Notes: generated from the letters alone by a model not told the origin. 64,000 nucleotides of DNA from Minisyncoccota bacterium (GCA_041666225.1 JBAYHJ010000002.1:23446-87445), one strand, 5' to 3'; shown: positions 1 through 7,075, numbered from the stretch's first letter. Program-made: numbers and translations.

Positions 1-360
1 AGAAATAAAGTCAGTAGCTTTTGTATATTCTGTAGCTGGCAAGATATTTAAAGTGTCACGATCTTTATAAAAAACATCAGTATAAAATGTTGTAAATTCT
101 TTTAGACTTTTGCCTTCTTTTTGGGATTCACGAATAGTCTTATCATCAACATCTGTAATATTCATAATATGCTTAACATTGTAACCTGTATGTGTCAGAT
201 AACGTTTAAGCATATCAGAAAAAACATACGCCCTAAAATTACCAATATGTGCATGACTATAGACAGTAGGCCCGCAAGTATACAAGCCTACGTTCATTCC
301 TGATATTGGTTTGAATTCTTCTTTCTCCCTTGATAGTGTGTTATATAATTTTAAGGTCAT
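1..360 (-). CDS. cysS: cysteinyl-tRNA synthetase, N-terminal part; the gene continues past the left window edge
   Basis: Reverse-complement translation from the ATG at 358-360 gives MTLKLYNTLSREKEEFKPISGMNVGLYTCGPTVYSHAHIGNFRAYVFSDMLKRYL, which contains the class I HIGN motif. Not in the ORF track because it is truncated by the window edge. Confidence 0.8.
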   Translation of the reverse strand, partial: MTLKLYNTLSREKEEFKPISGMNVGLYTCGPTVYSHAHIGNFRAYVFSDMLKRYLTHTGYNVKHIMNITDVDDKTIRESQKEGKSLKEFTTFYTDVFYKDRDTLNILPATEYTKATDFIS

Positions 361-692: not shown

Positions 693-866
693 ATGGACGA
701 TGAACGAAATAAAGGCAAGGAGGATAATAAGACTAAATTAGATTCACTTTTTAGTCTTTTGAGTAAAAAAAACTCTATTATAAAAAAATATCGAAAGAAG
801 TTTGAGGACTTGAAAATCGGTCAAATTAGAAATGGCATAGATGGCAATAATTACAAAAATGAATGA
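693..866 (+). CDS. hypothetical 57-aa Lys-rich protein, possible leaderless first gene of the operon
   Basis: The ATG at 693 lies 8 nt after TATAAT (679-684). The ORF MDDERNKGKEDNKTKLDSLFSLLSKKNSIIKKYRKKFEDLKIGQIRNGIDGNNYKNE ends at TGA 864-866 and overlaps the start of the 1160-aa gene. It is below the track size cutoff. Confidence 0.3.
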   Translation: MDDERNKGKEDNKTKLDSLFSLLSKKNSIIKKYRKKFEDLKIGQIRNGIDGNNYKNE

Positions 867-3800
867 AAAACAGGAACAATTCAAACAATTAAGAGATTCT
901 CGTTTAGATAATGAGCGTTTATTGGAAGATAAAAAATCGCTTGAATTAAAAAAGGGCGAGATGAACAAAGAGGATTGGGAATTAAAAGCCAGGTCAATAG
1001 AAATTGAAATTCTAAAAACAAGAGGCGATATATATAAACTTGAGGAAACTTTGGGGTTAGATAAAAACGATCCCGAAGTTAAAAAAATAGAAGAAGAAGC
1101 TTTTACTGAAATTAATGAACTTGAAAAAGATTTTGAAAAAGTCATTGTAAGTGAAAGTACTGAAGATAAAGAATTTTTTGAAGAGATAGATGAATTAGCA
1201 AGTTGCATAAATAAGATAACAGATAAGGTTTATCAGAGGGGTTATTCTGTTGAGACACTTGAAAATCTAAGAAATTCTGAAAATATTAATGAAAAAGAAT
1301 TTTATAATGAAATAGAGTTAGATTTTGAAAAATTTAATGGGGACTCAAAAATAAAAAATTTAAAAGAGAAAAATTCAAATTTGATGCTTGACCTTCTGAT
1401 TCTAAAAATAAAAGATGAATATTTTAAAAATTATTTTTTAGTGGATTTTTCTGGTGATGAGAATATTCCACATTCTAAAATAGTTGATATTTTTATTCAT
1501 AATATTCCTAAAAATAAGGACACGAGGTCTTATAAAGATTTAGAGGACTCAGTTAATGATAGATTAACTAAGGAAAAAAGAAATGCACTTTTAAATCTTC
1601 CAGCAGAAGAAGTGCTTGATATTGTTTTAGATGATCCAGAAATATTATCTTCAGATTTAGAAAGAAATTTGTCATCAAAAGTATCAGATTTATGCCAATC
1701 ATATTTAAACGCAAATAATTTAAATGGAGTTAAAAGAATATTGGAGAAAATATTAAAAATTAAAGAGAATAAAGATATTAGTATTACTTCATTTTTACCC
1801 AAAATCAACACCTCACTTAATTTTAATGAGGAAGAAACAATTGCAATATTTTCAGGTGAAATGCCTGAATGGATTTTTGACAGATATTGTGATTCTATAA
1901 TTTGCAGTCCTTTCATTAGTTTGGTTCCTGAGAAATACATAAAAGAAAAATATTTTCATGGAGAAATTATTGTTGTATTTCCACTAACAAAAGAATCTAT
2001 AAAACAAGGTTTAGATAAAAATGGTTTAATTTTTTCAGATTTATCACCAGAAGAAAAAATTATTTGTTTAGAAAAAGGGGAAGATAATATGATTGATATT
2101 TTTTCAGTTGATGATTTAAAACAGATATTAAGTTTTGGAAAATATATTGATATAGATAAAATTCCAAAAAAATATCAGACTGAACTTAAGTATGATATAA
2201 TCGACAATTTATTCAATAATAGAAATTTAGACCATCTTGAGATTTTAAAGAAGGTATCTAAGGAATTAAACTTAAATTTTAAAGATTTATCAGATGAAAA
2301 AAACATTTCTATTTTAAATAAAATAAATTACAGCAGTGATATTGTTTCATTATTTGATCCACAAAATCTTAAAAGATTAATATTAAGAGAGGATTCTGAA
2401 TTTGAGAGTTCATATGGTTTAGAAAATTTGTTAAATATTACAGGATTAACTGTATCAGATTTTTCAGAAGCTAAACAAATCAAAATTTTTTATAAAGTTC
2501 GCTGGAGTGTAAATAAAATAAAAAATATATTTTCAATTGATGATTTACGTAAAATTGTAATAAATAAGGACATAAATCTTGATTTTGATAATATACCAAA
2601 TGAATATATTGATGGTCTAAGTAATGAAATAATCGAAATGCTGAGAAGAAAAGGAGACCTTTCTTTTGAAAAAAATAAAGTGACAAGGGAATGGTTTTTT
2701 GAAAAATTAAAAGAAAGAATAGAAAAAGATGATAATTTCGAAATTGAAAAAGATAGATATAAAAATCTTAAACGAATAAATAGAATTCAAGAATCTTTTT
2801 GGCTTTTAGATAGTCAAGAAAAATTGCCACCTCAAATAATTGAAAAATTTAATATTTTCAAAGAAAAATATGGGAAAAAGGGTGAGGGTTTAATTTCTCT
2901 TTCTATTGTGGCTCATGGGCTTGAAAATATTAATCAAACAGTCATAGAAATCGAAAAAATGGAACAAGTTATTGATTTATACGATAAAGAAAACATTCCA
3001 GAAGGGATGAGGGGTACATATGGTTTTGAATATGAAGTTGGTACAGAGCATGGTAAGTTATACGATGAAGAAAGTATATTAGGGTACGCGATTGAAGCAG
3101 AACTAATTGGAAGATCATCAAATATTAAACGAGGGGGTGGTGGTTCAGGTTCTATTTATGAACACTCAACTACTCCTACCGATAATCCATACATCGTCAT
3201 GGTTGAGATGGACTTACTTCAAAAAGCTAGAATGATTGACCCAAATGCAAAAGAATTTCCAGGTAGTTCGAGAGGGTACCATTTAAACCTCGGAGGAGAA
3301 AATGGTTTAACTTTATCTGAAAATATGTATTTTTTTGAAAATACGATGTATCTGACAGGGTTAAATAGTTTAAAAACAGGAATGGAAGTTAGTTCAATTA
3401 AAAATATACACCAAAAATTATTAGATAAAGTTTTTGAAAAAAAACAGGGTGGGGATAGGGTTGAAATAAAAAGCATGGGATTTGATTGTGTGGAACAATT
3501 TAATCGTGCTATTTTATCTGCTCACAATACTGTGATAGCGGTTCAGTTGGCAGAAAAATATCAACTAAATCCTTCTTTTGAAATATTAGAAAAATTACCT
3601 AATAATATTGAGGATTTTGATTCATTTCTTTTGTCTATTAATGACTTTGAGGAAAAAATATTTGATTCAGAACAAGAAAAGCAAATTGTTTATGCTTGGT
3701 TGAAGTTTAAAAAAGAAACATTTTTAGCAATAAAACAACACAATAACTCATTTGTTCAAAGTGAATTTGAAGGATCATTTTTTAATGAAAAAGGAGAATA

Positions 3801-4323
3801 TGTTGAGACTACTGAGAACATTGATTTGAAGGGGAACAATCAAACTATAAAAGATTTGGGTATTAATTTAAATTCAGGTGAATTTAAAAAAATTTATCAA
3901 ATTCCTGAAGATTGCTTAAATAGCGAAACATACACCAAAGAATTATCTAATTCATTAACTCGCGTGAATAATATATTTATATTTAAAGAACCAGTTTTAT
4001 CAGAAGGTAAATTTAGCGTTAACCCAATAACTAAGCAAAGACAATTAAAACCTGAACAGATAGCTAACGCGTATGCTTTCTTGACTGGAATGAGGGGGGA
4101 GGGTTACATAAAAGATATTCCAGGAAGTCCTTTTGATTCAATTATTGATACTGGGGGTAAAATTAGAGATGGATATTATTATGTTCAGAAGGCCTCAGAA
4201 GAAATGATTACTCATAAATCACAAATAATTTTAAATCGATTTAACAAAGAAATGGAGGAATTATTAACAAACTCAGTCGAAGAAGATGCGAATAAACAGA
4301 AACAATATGAAAGAGCAATATAG
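841..4323 (+). CDS. large hypothetical protein (1160 aa); Glu/Lys-rich coiled-coil N-terminus and an uncharacterised C-terminal region
   Basis: Long uninterrupted ORF. The first ~130 aa are E/K-rich heptad-like. The C-terminal part contains TYGFEYEVGTEHG, IKRGGGGSGSIYEHSTTPTDNPYIVMVEMD and RGYHLNLGGENG. I recognise no family with confidence. Confidence 0.7.
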   Translation: MAIITKMNEKQEQFKQLRDSRLDNERLLEDKKSLELKKGEMNKEDWELKARSIEIEILKTRGDIYKLEETLGLDKNDPEVKKIEEEAFTEINELEKDFEKVIVSESTEDKEFFEEIDELASCINKITDKVYQRGYSVETLENLRNSENINEKEFYNEIELDFEKFNGDSKIKNLKEKNSNLMLDLLILKIKDEYFKNYFLVDFSGDENIPHSKIVDIFIHNIPKNKDTRSYKDLEDSVNDRLTKEKRNALLNLPAEEVLDIVLDDPEILSSDLERNLSSKVSDLCQSYLNANNLNGVKRILEKILKIKENKDISITSFLPKINTSLNFNEEETIAIFSGEMPEWIFDRYCDSIICSPFISLVPEKYIKEKYFHGEIIVVFPLTKESIKQGLDKNGLIFSDLSPEEKIICLEKGEDNMIDIFSVDDLKQILSFGKYIDIDKIPKKYQTELKYDIIDNLFNNRNLDHLEILKKVSKELNLNFKDLSDEKNISILNKINYSSDIVSLFDPQNLKRLILREDSEFESSYGLENLLNITGLTVSDFSEAKQIKIFYKVRWSVNKIKNIFSIDDLRKIVINKDINLDFDNIPNEYIDGLSNEIIEMLRRKGDLSFEKNKVTREWFFEKLKERIEKDDNFEIEKDRYKNLKRINRIQESFWLLDSQEKLPPQIIEKFNIFKEKYGKKGEGLISLSIVAHGLENINQTVIEIEKMEQVIDLYDKENIPEGMRGTYGFEYEVGTEHGKLYDEESILGYAIEAELIGRSSNIKRGGGGSGSIYEHSTTPTDNPYIVMVEMDLLQKARMIDPNAKEFPGSSRGYHLNLGGENGLTLSENMYFFENTMYLTGLNSLKTGMEVSSIKNIHQKLLDKVFEKKQGGDRVEIKSMGFDCVEQFNRAILSAHNTVIAVQLAEKYQLNPSFEILEKLPNNIEDFDSFLLSINDFEEKIFDSEQEKQIVYAWLKFKKETFLAIKQHNNSFVQSEFEGSFFNEKGEYVETTENIDLKGNNQTIKDLGINLNSGEFKKIYQIPEDCLNSETYTKELSNSLTRVNNIFIFKEPVLSEGKFSVNPITKQRQLKPEQIANAYAFLTGMRGEGYIKDIPGSPFDSIIDTGGKIRDGYYYVQKASEEMITHKSQIILNRFNKEMEELLTNSVEEDANKQKQYERAI

Positions 4324-4741
4324 TCAATTTCAAAAAAAACTAGAAGAAATTCCTCAATTAAAACCCGAGGCTCATTTTGTTATAAATGATTCCGCACAGA
4401 AAATTTTAAACAACTCTCCTTTGAACAAAATAGAGCAAGACTCAATTGACGCCATATTTATTGAACTTGAAGAACTTGATAAAGATATTGTTAGTTATTT
4501 AATTAATCTTAAATCAAAAGGAATAATAACAAATGATGAATGTAATTTAATTGCTTCATATTTTACTGCTTCAAAGCAAATAGGTCCAGACAGTGGAGTA
4601 ATTCGGGATGCTTTTTATGGAAAAACAGTTAGTCAAGGTGAGTTTGAAGAATTAATGAAAAAAGTATCTATTCCAGAATATTCTAGCTCAATCATTTTAA
4701 ATGTTTACAAAAAAATCATCGAGAAAAATAATAAAATTTAA
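4286..4741 (+). CDS. hypothetical protein (144-151 aa), overlaps the upstream gene and is probably translationally coupled
   Basis: The ORF overlaps the 3' end of 841..4323 by 17-38 nt in another frame; the alternative start MKEQYSQ is at 4307. No recognisable domain. Confidence 0.5.
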   Translation: MRINRNNMKEQYSQFQKKLEEIPQLKPEAHFVINDSAQKILNNSPLNKIEQDSIDAIFIELEELDKDIVSYLINLKSKGIITNDECNLIASYFTASKQIGPDSGVIRDAFYGKTVSQGEFEELMKKVSIPEYSSSIILNVYKKIIEKNNKI

Positions 4742-4788
4742 TAATATTTTATATTGAAAATATTGACTTTTTCTGGTATATTTAGAAA

Positions 4789-5898
4789 ATGCTTAGTATA
4801 GGAATTGTAGGTTTACCAAATGTTGGAAAATCAACTCTGTTTAACGCTCTTACGAAGAAGGGTGTTGCGGCGGAGAATTATCCTTTCTGCACAATTGATC
4901 CATCTGTGGGTATTGTGCCTGTTCCTGACGAGCGTTTATGGAAACTTTCTGATTTTTCAAAATCAGCTAAAACTATTCCGGCGGTTATTGAATTTGTGGA
5001 TATTGCTGGTTTAGTTAAAGGTGCATCAAAAGGGGAAGGACTAGGGAATAAATTTTTAGCCAATATTCGCGAAGTAGATGCAATTTTAGAAATTGTCAGA
5101 ATTTTTCCACTAAAAAATGATAAAGGGAATGAAATTATTCATATCTATGGAGACATTGATCCACTTCGTGATATTGAAGTTATTAATCTTGAGCTTATCC
5201 TTGCGGACTTGGAAACTGTTGCAAAACGTCGGGTAAATATAAATAAAGATATTAAAAAAAATGATAAAGAAGCAATTATTGAAGATGGAGCTTTGGTAAA
5301 ACTAGAAGTTGCTTTTGAAAAAGCAGAACTTGCAAATACTGTAGAACTTAATGAAAAAGAAATGGAAAAAATAAAAATGTTAAATCTTCTTACTCTTAAG
5401 CCTTTCATTTATGGATTAAATAAACAAGGTGGAATGCAAAATTTAGATGAGATGAATCCTGAAATTTTTAAAGAATTAACTGACTATATTGAAAGTATGG
5501 GTTCACGTTTTGTTGTAATTGATGCTAAAATAGAGGAAGAATTGAAGGACTTTGAGGGGGATGAAAAAGAGATGTTTCGTAAAGAAATGGGTGGTGACGA
5601 TGATGGGATAAATCATCTCATTACTGAAGGATACAAGCTCCTTGGCCTCGATACTTATTTTACCACCGGTCTTGATGAAACAAGGGCTTGGACGATAAAA
5701 AGTGGAAGTACTGCTCCTGTGGCAGGAATGGCAATTCATACAGATTTTAAAGATAAATTTATTCGGGCGGAAGTTGTTTTTTGGAAGGATTTACTTGAAG
5801 CTGGAAGTTACCATGAGGCTAAGGCCAAGGGTAAAGTTAGAACCGAAGGAAAAGAATATATTGTGAAAAATGGAGATGTCGTAGAATTTAAAATTTAA
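4789..5898 (+). CDS. ychF: ribosome-binding ATPase YchF (Obg-family GTPase)
   Basis: MLSIGIVGLPNVGKSTLFNALT has the P-loop, followed by FVDIAGLVKGASKGEGLGNKFLANIREVDAI and the TGS-like C-terminus; 369 aa is the typical length. Confidence 0.9.
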   Translation: MLSIGIVGLPNVGKSTLFNALTKKGVAAENYPFCTIDPSVGIVPVPDERLWKLSDFSKSAKTIPAVIEFVDIAGLVKGASKGEGLGNKFLANIREVDAILEIVRIFPLKNDKGNEIIHIYGDIDPLRDIEVINLELILADLETVAKRRVNINKDIKKNDKEAIIEDGALVKLEVAFEKAELANTVELNEKEMEKIKMLNLLTLKPFIYGLNKQGGMQNLDEMNPEIFKELTDYIESMGSRFVVIDAKIEEELKDFEGDEKEMFRKEMGGDDDGINHLITEGYKLLGLDTYFTTGLDETRAWTIKSGSTAPVAGMAIHTDFKDKFIRAEVVFWKDLLEAGSYHEAKAKGKVRTEGKEYIVKNGDVVEFKI

Positions 5899-5929: not shown

Positions 5930-6505
5930 ATGAAAAACAGTTGGCAAAAAGCAGAAGAGATTTTAAATAAAGATGGGGTAGTTGTACTACCCACTGATAC
6001 TTTATATGGAATAATAGCTAGTGCCTTATCTAAAAAAGCTGTTGAAAAATTGTATAAGATTAAGGGTCGAATTGAAAATAAACCCTTTATTGTATTGATA
6101 AATTCTTATAAGGATTTAAATAAGTTTGGGATAAAAATAGACAGAGAACACTCTGTTTTTTTGCAAAAAATTTGGCCTGGAAAAGTTAGTGTTATTTTCC
6201 CTTGCACATTAGACAAATGGCATTATGTTCATCGTGGAGTAGAATCAATAGCACTTAGAATGATTAGTCCTAAAAACAAAAATTTATTTAATTTGATTAA
6301 TAAAGTAGGCCCACTTGTTGCACCAAGTGCAAATAAGGAAGGTGATAGAGCTGCAGAGGATATATTAGAAGCTAAAAAATATTTTGGAAATGAAGTATCT
6401 CTATATATAAATGGAGGCAACAGGAAATTTAAATCATCAACATTGGTTAAGTTTAAAAATAATAGTTGGGTTGTCTTAAGGCAAGGGGAAGTAATAATTA
6501 AGTAA
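5930..6505 (+). CDS. tsaC: L-threonylcarbamoyladenylate synthase TsaC/YrdC family
   Basis: VVLPTDTLYGIIASA followed by KIKGRIENKPFIVLI matches the Sua5/YciO/YrdC fold signature. Confidence 0.8.
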   Translation: MKNSWQKAEEILNKDGVVVLPTDTLYGIIASALSKKAVEKLYKIKGRIENKPFIVLINSYKDLNKFGIKIDREHSVFLQKIWPGKVSVIFPCTLDKWHYVHRGVESIALRMISPKNKNLFNLINKVGPLVAPSANKEGDRAAEDILEAKKYFGNEVSLYINGGNRKFKSSTLVKFKNNSWVVLRQGEVIIK

Positions 6506-6531
6506 AAAGAGTAGCTACTTGCTACTCTTTT
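6506..6531. terminator. bidirectional intrinsic terminator shared by the convergent tsaC and DUF1003 genes
   Basis: Perfect hairpin AAGAGTAGC-TACTT-GCTACTCTT flanked by A/T runs, lying between and overlapping the two stop codons. Confidence 0.6.
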
Positions 6532-7075
6532 TACTTAATTTAGGTATCTTTTTTATTTTATTTTGTTTTTTAAGTTCTATAACTTCTTCTATTAATTTTC
6601 CAAGGGAATCTTCAATTCTTCTCATTATTTCATCGTCTTTTTTTTGTTCTATTTCCTCAATATCTTCTTCTTCATTAATCTCATCAACATCTTTCTGAAT
6701 CTCATCCACATCTTTTTCGATTTCTTCCACGTCTTCTTGAATCTCATCAACATCTTTCTGAATCTCATCCACGTCTTCTTGAATTTCTCCGACATCACGA
6801 GCCACAGCATGCAATTTTCTTGCTTGGCGATTTACACTCATTTGTATGAAGATAGAAAGGTAAATAGCTTCAAGAGAGACAATTGTTGTTAGAACAAGAA
6901 GAATCTTATCCATAGCTATACCATAAAAATAAAGTAAAAATGCAACGATAAATAACGTCGTATGAATAACCAATGAATTAGTAGAGCCAATCCATCTAGT
7001 TGCTCTAATAGCAATTTTATCTAGACCATCTGCTGTTTTTTTTCTTGAAACTTCCATTAGGTGTTTATTATACAC
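6515..7075 (-). CDS. DUF1003-family membrane protein with an acidic heptad-repeat tail
   Basis: The N-terminal part has two TM helices and the RQ(A/E) motif typical of DUF1003. The C-terminal part is DVDEIQK-type repeats. Confidence 0.65.
   Translation of the reverse strand: MYNKHLMEVSRKKTADGLDKIAIRATRWIGSTNSLVIHTTLFIVAFLLYFYGIAMDKILLVLTTIVSLEAIYLSIFIQMSVNRQARKLHAVARDVGEIQEDVDEIQKDVDEIQEDVEEIEKDVDEIQKDVDEINEEEDIEEIEQKKDDEIMRRIEDSLGKLIEEVIELKKQNKIKKIPKLSKKSSK
6626..6799 (-). repeat. in-frame tandem 21-bp repeats encoding heptads (DVGEIQE / DVDEIQK / DVDEIQE / DVEEIEK / DVDEIQK / DVDEINE)
   Basis: Near-identical 21-nt units are visible on the plus strand (aatctcatcaacatctttctg, aatctcatccacatctttttc and so on) across about 6655-6790. 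Confidence 0.8.

Follow-up and report, generated by a model that had tools for sequence, protein, structure and literature searches.

A three-gene operon from the candidate phyla radiation encodes a giant protein with a predicted carboxylate-amine ligase fold and two small companion proteins

The stretch of DNA analyzed here, called the window throughout, comprises 64,000 nucleotides (nt) of one strand of a Minisyncoccota bacterium (GCA_041666225.1 JBAYHJ010000002.1:23446-87445). Near its 5' end lies an operon of three plus-strand genes, which we call leader, ligase and partner; the middle one encodes a giant protein whose C-terminal module is predicted to belong to the glutamine synthetase (GS)/carboxylate-amine ligase superfamily. 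All three open reading frames (ORFs) that an original prediction had placed here were present in the ORF listing, at 693-866 (57 amino acids, aa), 841-4323 (1160 aa) and 4286-4741 (151 aa), but two of the starts had to be revised. Residue M7 of the 1160-aa ORF is the first residue of the deposited protein P0001, an exact 1154-aa match named hypothetical protein from a Candidatus Paceibacterota metagenome-assembled genome, and also of the two full-length homologues. The big gene thus most probably starts at 859, as in the NCBI annotation, and the longest ORF from 841 was set aside. The third protein, originally given as 144-151 aa, is deposited as 144 aa (P0152) with its start at 4307. With these starts, the leader gene (693-866, + strand) encodes a 57-aa basic protein with an isoelectric point (pI) of 9.6, the ligase gene (859-4323, + strand) a protein of 1154 aa, and the partner gene (4307-4741, + strand) a 144-aa acidic protein (pI 5.1).

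The ligase gene, starting at 859, overlaps the end of the leader gene (TGA at 864-866) by 8 nt, as a ATGAATGA arrangement, and the partner gene begins 17 nt inside the ligase gene, an overlap of the same length as in the homologous loci L001 and L002. Shine-Dalgarno sequences were lacking at all internal starts, and stops and starts overlapped or were at most 5 nt apart across the loci. Gene order and overlaps recurred in homologous loci with wholly different flanking genes, which varied from locus to locus (e.g. secE-nusG-rplK, lgt, GAF, glycosyltransferases). This is what termination-reinitiation coupling would look like, and the two overlaps, the absence of internal Shine-Dalgarno sequences and the recurrence in unlike contexts speak for the translationally coupled operon that had been proposed. 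As a fixed trio the operon did not hold up entirely: the partner is constant in the near branch, whereas the leader is not universal and the partner is missing in lineages using genetic code 25. The loci compared were five homologues from word-indexed searches and 14 from a scan of GTDB species genomes, one of which (L011) is the same contig as L003. Labels of the scan loci were nearly all Paceibacterota, Moraniibacteriota, Patescibacteria or 'Saccharibacteria', apart from one given only as 'uncultured bacterium' and one short contig labelled Gammaproteobacteria. The 14 scan loci were searched with the operon's own hidden Markov models (HMMs) only, and statements on neighbouring genes refer to the loci with gene tables.

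When a profile built from the last 520 aa of the big protein was searched exhaustively with HMMER, 177 representative clusters (50% identity) were retrieved, and 135 of these had E<1e-30. The proteins are almost all between 700 and 1850 aa long and their database names are 'hypothetical protein' throughout. Sources named to lineage were almost all members of the candidate phyla radiation (CPR), with several CPR lineages represented, including groups that read UGA as glycine (UGA=Gly). The proteins share a conserved C-terminal module of about 520 aa (window 2758-4320, + strand), for which three long helices, a beta-sheet cradle of GS fold and a family-specific helical/loop region were predicted, and which ended at most 5 residues from the C-terminus in 122 of 126 full matches. 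Although members are only ~25% identical, the active-site signature is invariant, and the three motifs singled out in the original prediction proved to be its most conserved parts. The big protein gave no significant match in Pfam, NCBIfam, PADLOC or PHROGs.

For the module, AlphaFold2 (AF2) reached a pLDDT of 69.5 with 6 sequences, and of 86.7 with a pTM of 0.89 when 18 diverse sequences were supplied. Two independent AF2 models and two structure-comparison methods led to the GS/carboxylate-amine ligase superfamily, and the predicted fold was a curved antiparallel beta-sheet cradle as in GS, glutamate-cysteine ligase (GCL), YbdK, PafA and Dop. Foldseek placed PafA first (probability 0.97, longest alignment), followed by Bacillus subtilis GS (0.99), YbdK and Dop. 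In the published description of the superfamily (Iyer, Burroughs & Aravind 2008; PMC2588565), six antiparallel core strands form a sheet shaped like a saddle, against whose convex side helices are packed, and this arrangement was likewise found in the predicted module. According to the same work, the canonical motifs are GhExE or Ex[EH] on strand 1, acidic residues on strands 2 and 3, [HD]x[NH] on strand 4, an Arg plus a loop Arg on strand 5, and Ex[RK]x2D followed by a helix on strand 6, with GhExE being diagnostic for the ligase as opposed to the (guanidino-)kinase superfamily (PMC2588565).

To count conservation, 126 module homologues were aligned and secondary structure was taken from the AF2 model; module numbering plus 639 gives the numbering of the 1160-aa ORF. 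Core strand 1 (predicted strand 86-95) carries the GhExE motif as G-F-E-Y-E (3022-3036, + strand), the predicted Mg2+/ATP ligands; E91 and E93 occurred in 126/126 sequences and G89 in 125/126, made up of 112 G and 13 W that represent mistranslated UGA-Gly. Another invariant Glu (module E135, ORF E774; 3160-3162, + strand; 126/126) lies on a core strand at 132-137 of the model and is followed by T-x-P-x-x-N-P-Y and a helix with E150 (123/126, 98%); N143 and P144 are conserved to 98%, and the assignment of this segment to the canonical strands is putative. In core strand 4, H-L-N (H175-L-N177; 3280-3288, + strand) corresponds to H-x-[T/S/N] in the family and would be the equivalent of [HD]x[NH], with H175 present in 126/126. 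The strand 5 region is basic, with R65/K55 at position 220 (R/K in 95%), R72/H24 at 218 and R56/K36 at 215 (basic in 73%). Core strand 6 reads E-I-K-S-M-G-F-D (3463-3486, + strand), an E-x-[RK]-x4-D motif in which E236 is invariant (126/126), position 238 is always R or K (R81/K45, 100%) and D243 is found in 123/126 (98%), followed by a helix at 245-267. The conserved residues are located on predicted strands at i/i+2 spacing, and the candidate active site in ORF numbering is E730/E732/E774/H814/E875. The earlier impression that the motifs are reminiscent of carboxylate-amine ligase or GS-like sites is thus substantiated by the two models, the two structure comparisons and a strand signature at invariant positions.

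A further block is near-invariant and specific for the family (H328-N329, F332, E336, N405, K410, N437 and R470-x-G-Y-Y-x-x-Q-G-A-S-E-x-M-I-x-H-x-x-Q), and probably completes the substrate or nucleotide site; the signature of the module's C-terminal end is R-[DE]-G-Y-Y-x-x-Q-G-A-S-E-x-M-I-x-H-x-x-Q. In addition, an Asp was present at position -4 of E135 in 104/126 sequences (83%). In the window protein and in 21 of its relatives, the G-x-D-[AG]-[VI]-H-E loop containing this Asp (module 126-135, window 3133-3162) gives way to a Gly/Ser-rich insertion (GGGGSGSIYE).

Three observations on the family sequences are recorded here. About 13 representatives (P0111, P0116, P0120, P0121, P0123, P0127, P0129, P0139, P0140, P0144, P0148, P0150 and P0151; loci L027, L028 and L031) contain 2-5% Trp and 0.4-2% Gly, compared with medians of 0.6% and 5.3%, and have W at invariant Gly columns; the skewed content together with the position of these W residues indicates UGA=Gly (code 25) genes that were translated with UGA=Trp. 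The C-termini of 26/136 members end in 'AA' and of 51/136 in 'A', often as ...LAA, which is far above chance; such ends resemble the ssrA degradation tag. The C-terminus of the window protein reads ...ERAI. Finally, the ligase gene is broken within the catalytic core in L007:1-230, L008:1-346 and L009:1-230, where the in-frame '...SRGYHLNIGGESGL' is closely preceded by the 3' end of a Y1 transposase of IS200 type (Pfam Y1_Tnp, E 4e-11); due to this interruption by an IS200-type element, P0006 (299 aa) was classified as a gene fragment.

In contrast to the constant module, the N-terminal arm is clade-specific. Arms fell into at least five mutually unrelated clusters and ranged from 200 to 1350 aa across the family. 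In the window protein, residues 1-130 contain 20% E, 14% K and 10% L, and the middle part is rich in I, L, K, E, N and D, so that the regional composition is as originally described. The first part forms a highly charged, helical segment (859-1233, + strand; E 20%, K 14%) that is conserved in P0002 and P0003. The coiled coil that had been proposed for it is possible, with weak support from heptad periodicity in residues 1-125 (p~0.03). Further downstream, a repeat of ~63 aa occurs in three copies (2020-2637, + strand, with copies at 2020-2205, 2266-2415 and 2440-2637; residues 394-599) with the consensus TGLTFSDLSPEQK...LFSLEDFKQIL...IDPDKIPEEY.... Pairwise comparison of the copies gave z = 7.3 and 4.9 vs shuffles, and an iterated HMM assigned domain E values of 1e-22, 5e-8 and 9e-20; a self-BLAST of the protein did not detect the repeat. 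P0002 has four copies and P0003 two. As a general unit behind the size variation of the family the repeat was rejected, being found in just 14 of 151 family proteins. In P0133 (L032, Candidatus Absconditabacterales), the module is preceded by an ADP-ribosyltransferase domain of the ART-PolyVal type at residues 60-268 (PF18760, E 3.5e-15).

The occurrence of the small proteins was assessed with HMMs built from them and run on the homologous loci. Homologues of the leader were found directly 5' of the ligase gene in 11 distinct loci and, together with an uncalled ORF in L029 (E 3.5e-4), in 12 loci. They are basic (pI 9-11.6) and 51-65 aa long, and share an amphipathic conserved core, ...KK(Y/F)R-x-K(F/L/I)E-x-x-K(I/V)..., followed by a variable tail; the C-termini differ in length and sequence (…NE, …HE, …IK, …ES, …PQ, …NH, …KT, …MM, …LE, …YK). 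The small ORF is probably helical, and its conservation marks it as a genuine protein family. It matched nothing in Pfam, NCBIfam, PADLOC or PHROGs. The idea that the leader is fused to the N-terminus of the big protein in leader-less loci ('EKYRTEILPLIEILK' vs 'KKYRKKFEELKI') was dismissed at HMM E>1 and hhalign probability <1%, and no fusion of leader or partner was found among 151 family proteins.

Partner homologues were located immediately 3' of the ligase gene in all 24 of 24 near-branch locus entries (E 1e-38 to 1e-69), and one was also clear in the distant locus L026 (E 7e-12), which is without a leader. The conserved motifs are KPEaHF-x-ND, G-x-IT-x-EE, FL-x-A-x-Q-x-GPds and siPE, and like the leader the protein belongs to no family in Pfam, NCBIfam, PADLOC or PHROGs. 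ORFs of 129-145 aa stand at the partner position in L029, L030 and L032. Their homology was not demonstrable (HMM E 0.1-0.7); the hhalign P values against the partner were 0.004-0.03, each with a co-linear alignment. A transmembrane (TM) segment or signal peptide was predicted in none of the three proteins of the operon, which are therefore taken to be cytoplasmic.

Altogether, we favour, with slightly better than even confidence, the interpretation that the big proteins are a new family of ATP-dependent carboxylate-amine ligases acting in complex with one or two small partners, probably on a macromolecular substrate. ATP-Mg2+ would be bound on the concave face of the sheet, the substrate carboxylate would be phosphorylated to an acyl-phosphate, and this would be resolved with an amine to yield an amide or isopeptide bond. 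The overlapping genes would allow the small proteins to be made in fixed proportion and to be complexed with the ligase, with the partner as an obligatory subunit serving as adaptor, regulator or substrate, and the long, clade-variable helical arm would recruit or position the macromolecular substrate. The length of the arms, the small obligatory subunit and the structural closeness to PafA/Dop make a protein or peptide a more likely substrate than a free metabolite; the single ART-PolyVal fusion is a further hint in this direction. Within a known enzyme superfamily, the proteins represent a new family whose architecture and partners are new as well.

Several results weigh against this interpretation. 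Sequence comparison did not connect the family to known ligases: the window protein had no match to Gln-synt_C, GCS2, GCS, Pup_ligase or Amidoligase_2 in Pfam/NCBIfam at E<=1, 11 other family members had no ligase-related Pfam match at E<=0.01, and among PDB sequences the single module found no relatives and the 18-sequence profile gave 0 matches at E<=10. Aligned with E. coli YbdK by hhalign, the family profile reached a probability of 0.2 with only the GhExE strand aligned. The homology to known ligases thus rests on predicted fold and motif order, and the family would form a very divergent branch. The motifs themselves deviate in places: position 177 on strand 4 is mostly T or S and not N/H (T71/S41/N14), the Asp of strand 6 follows at x4 spacing instead of the canonical x2, and the window protein, with K215, H218 and K220, is basic in strand 5 and has no Arg where most of the family has Arg. 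The loop Asp, present in 83% of the family, is missing from it as well; if this Asp is the catalytic base as in PafA/Dop, the clade of the window protein must use another residue or mechanism.

Other objections concern the small proteins and the substrate. The leader is present in about two-thirds of the loci and absent from about a third, with nothing detectable by its HMM in most of the distant loci and in 5 of the ~16 from the near branch, and two UGA=Gly (code 25) lineages (L027/L028 and L031) contain neither a partner nor a leader gene. As an analogue of Pup by virtue of a conserved C-terminus, the leader had to be rejected, its tails not being conserved. ART-PolyVal is no common fusion either, given its presence in 1 of 151 family proteins. 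The physical association of the three proteins is suggested by gene overlap only, and nothing in the analysis points to a particular substrate from which the carboxylate and amine could be named.

The best surviving alternative is a ligase for small molecules, which would form an amide metabolite of the gamma-glutamyl or another type, for instance a cofactor precursor, a thiol similar to glutathione, or a glutamine or amide derivative, and use arm and small proteins for oligomerisation or regulation. Most characterised members of the superfamily (GS, GCL, YbdK, GmaS) use free amino acids and match the module structurally as well as PafA/Dop do, the leader has no conserved C-terminal acceptor or donor residue, and the superfamily has been argued to serve the synthesis of metabolites, with pupylation as the exception (Iyer et al.; PMC2588565). 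On the other hand, metabolic genes were not consistently linked and neighbours differed in every locus, and arms of 200-1350 aa with an obligatory coupled partner would be unusual for a metabolite ligase. CPR genomes are moreover strongly reduced in biosynthesis. We therefore consider this alternative possible at a rather low probability. A little lower still stands the more specific proposal of a CPR-specific protein or peptide conjugation independent of pupylation, in which the arm-anchored ligase of GS fold would join leader or partner to another protein, or would modify the small protein itself.

Conjugation of the kind catalyzed by PafA, with the leader (or the 144-aa partner) as modifier attached to target lysines, appeared doubtful. 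The best structural matches include PafA and Dop, PafA with the top position and the longest alignment in Foldseek; a small (51-65 aa), probably helical ORF adjoins the ligase gene, as Pup adjoins PafA (PMC2588565); and most family members have an Asp in the loop where the catalytic Asp of PafA/Dop sits. A true Pup analogue is nevertheless unlikely, because the C-terminus of the leader is unconserved where Pup has its G[EQ], because the leader is dispensable, as seen from the near-branch and distant loci in which it was undetectable, because strand 6 (E-x-[RK], not [QH]x4D) is unlike that of PafA and a Pup_ligase Pfam match is missing, and because the neighbourhood tables contained no linked proteasome or Mpa-type genes.

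Less probable again is a Dop-like amidase, or a phosphotransfer enzyme of another non-ligase kind, in which nucleotide or phosphate bound at the GS-fold site would serve to hydrolyse an amide or isopeptide bond or merely to phosphorylate the substrate. The GhExE motif is diagnostic of the ligase superfamily and not of kinases (PMC2588565); the sequences here do not tell ligase from amidase. We give little credence to a conflict-system effector, toxin-like and macromolecule-modifying, with the small acidic downstream protein as immunity protein or antidote. A long arm, a C-terminal enzymatic domain and a small overlapping 3' gene do resemble polymorphic toxin-immunity pairs, and one ART-PolyVal member, the non-syntenic contexts and the copy disrupted by an IS200 element would fit. 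The constant C-terminal domain and variable N-terminus are, however, the reverse of polymorphic toxins, secretion signals, TM segments and PADLOC or PHROGs matches are missing, and the operon occurs as a single copy in the window, set among housekeeping genes. Least probable of all, and very unlikely, is a pseudoenzyme, a structural or scaffolding protein whose GS-like domain has degenerated and lost catalysis, or an adhesin/S-layer-type protein. The long, charged, repeat-containing N-terminal part and the lack of sequence-level similarity to active enzymes might suggest this, but the predicted catalytic residues are invariant, and since none of the three proteins has a TM segment or signal peptide, the adhesin and S-layer scenarios are excluded; consistent with this, matches to structural, adhesin or S-layer families were missing.

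If the preferred ligase interpretation holds, a biochemical class and a testable active site can be assigned to an unannotated family of giant proteins that Pfam, NCBIfam and PDB sequence profiles do not detect, and two small proteins are singled out for study alongside the ligase. CPR/Patescibacteria account for a large share of bacterial diversity and have tiny genomes with many conserved genes to which no function is assigned. With a protein or peptide substrate, the family would join pupylation as the only other protein-directed branch of the GS fold, and a metabolite substrate would mean an unrecognised amide compound from organisms thought to be nearly devoid of biosynthesis. Were the conjugation proposal true, it would reveal a new post-translational tagging or maturation pathway in ultra-small host-dependent bacteria. 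Literature searches on PafA, pupylation, carboxylate-amine ligases and giant proteins in CPR/Patescibacteria found no publication on the family.

Upstream of the operon, the spacer to the divergent gene at the beginning of the window, claimed to span 480 bp, measured 332 bp (361-692). A promoter-like site (657-684, + strand; TTTAAA, 16 nt, TATAAT) ends with its -10 box (679-684) 8 nt 5' of the leader ATG. It scored 10/12, with the number of hits in the region equal to the shuffle expectation, and -10-like boxes were found 6-12 nt upstream of the leader ATG in ~6 of 11 loci. A leaderless or very short-leader mRNA for the leader gene is therefore plausible, in line with the 'leaderless' ORF of the original prediction, without being proven. 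The same region contains a perfect 23-bp inverted repeat (636-694, no strand assigned; arms 636-658 and 672-694, 13-nt spacer, 100% complementary). Each arm includes a TATAAT, and the right arm covers the first two bases of the leader ATG. The repeat occurs once in the window and was absent from 10 homologous loci examined, so that a conserved operator was ruled out; it is possibly a lineage-specific operator, or a hairpin that would hide the start codon in a long-leader transcript.

The GC-rich structured island described in the spacer was confirmed, with 44% GC at 497-600 vs 17% in the flanks, and folded better than shuffled sequences on the plus strand (z = -2.6) but not on the minus strand. 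Immediately 5' of it lies a promoter-like TTGAAA-16-(TG)TATATT at 464-491, and a U-run follows the island (464-605 region). The island matched no Rfam family, tRNA or tmRNA, which speaks against a known RNA; an unannotated small RNA or 5' untranslated region element is possible.

The minus-strand neighbour upstream encodes the N-terminus of a class-I tRNA synthetase with a HIGN motif, consistent with cysS, and 3' of the operon follow ychF (4789-5898) and a Sua5/YrdC gene. A gene for cysS adjoins the ligase gene in the window (1-360, divergent) and in L027/L028 (convergent; L027:8153-9706), and Sua5/YrdC is located just 3' in the window (5930-6505) and in L029 (6569-7222); such recurring translation-related neighbours may mean no more than that CPR genomes carry these genes. 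Between the partner gene and ychF no terminator-like site was seen. A promoter-like TTGAAA-17-(TG)TATATT of ychF itself, within 4754-4790, ends 6 nt 5' of its ATG at 4789, which suggests that leaderless or very short-leader mRNAs may be common in this genome. Farther downstream, a 186-aa ORF on the minus strand (6515-7075) has hydrophobic stretches that possibly span the membrane and, behind them, a tandem heptad repeat of acidic character (DVDEIQK / DVEEIEK ...).

Compared with established members of the superfamily, the family is distinct from each. GS has an N-terminal beta-grasp domain and a ring oligomer that complete its active site. GS types I-III (2ojw, 8oow, 8pvg, 4lnn) are structural matches, yet the family showed no Gln-synt_C match and no evidence of such a domain or ring; the inter-motif distances of GS are longer than those of the module, and the accessory regions are entirely different. 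YbdK/GCS2 ligases (1tt4, 1r8g) and glutamate-cysteine ligases (2gwc, 3ig5, 1v4g) differ by the absence of a GCS2/GCS Pfam match and by the spacing of the strand-6 Asp. Unlike the family, with which its hhalign probability is as low as given above, YbdK is a stand-alone enzyme of ~370 aa acting on free amino acids. Polymorphic toxins combine a constant N-terminus with a variable C-terminal toxin, and the family shows the opposite design, a constant C-terminal module behind variable arms.

The nearest comparison is with PafA and Dop (PDB 4bjr, 9cku), which are among the top structural matches of the module in spite of no likeness at the level of sequence profiles and no match to Pup_ligase (PF03136). 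The set of predicted ligands parallels the Mg2+ ligands of Dop, E8, E10, Y92, E99, H155 and H241, which act with D94 and R227 (PMC8599861). The Asp at -4 of E135 recalls the catalytic Asp of Dop, located 5 residues before a metal-binding Glu (D94/E99; PMC8599861), although equivalence to PafA D64 or Dop D94 is putative. Strand 6 of PafA is [QH]x4D and that of the module E-x-[RK]-x4-D. In pupylation the modifier has the conserved C-terminal G[EQ] and its gene is always adjacent to PafA (PMC2588565), whereas the adjacent 51-65-aa leader has no such end and is not universal. Proteasome or Mpa/ARC genes were not found in the gene tables of the fetched loci, with whole genomes lying outside this search. 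PafA and Dop are free-standing enzymes of ~480 aa; the module forms the C-terminus of a 700-1850-aa protein, carries an extra conserved C-terminal region (R-G-Y-Y-x-x-Q-G-A-S-E-x-M) and is accompanied by an acidic partner.

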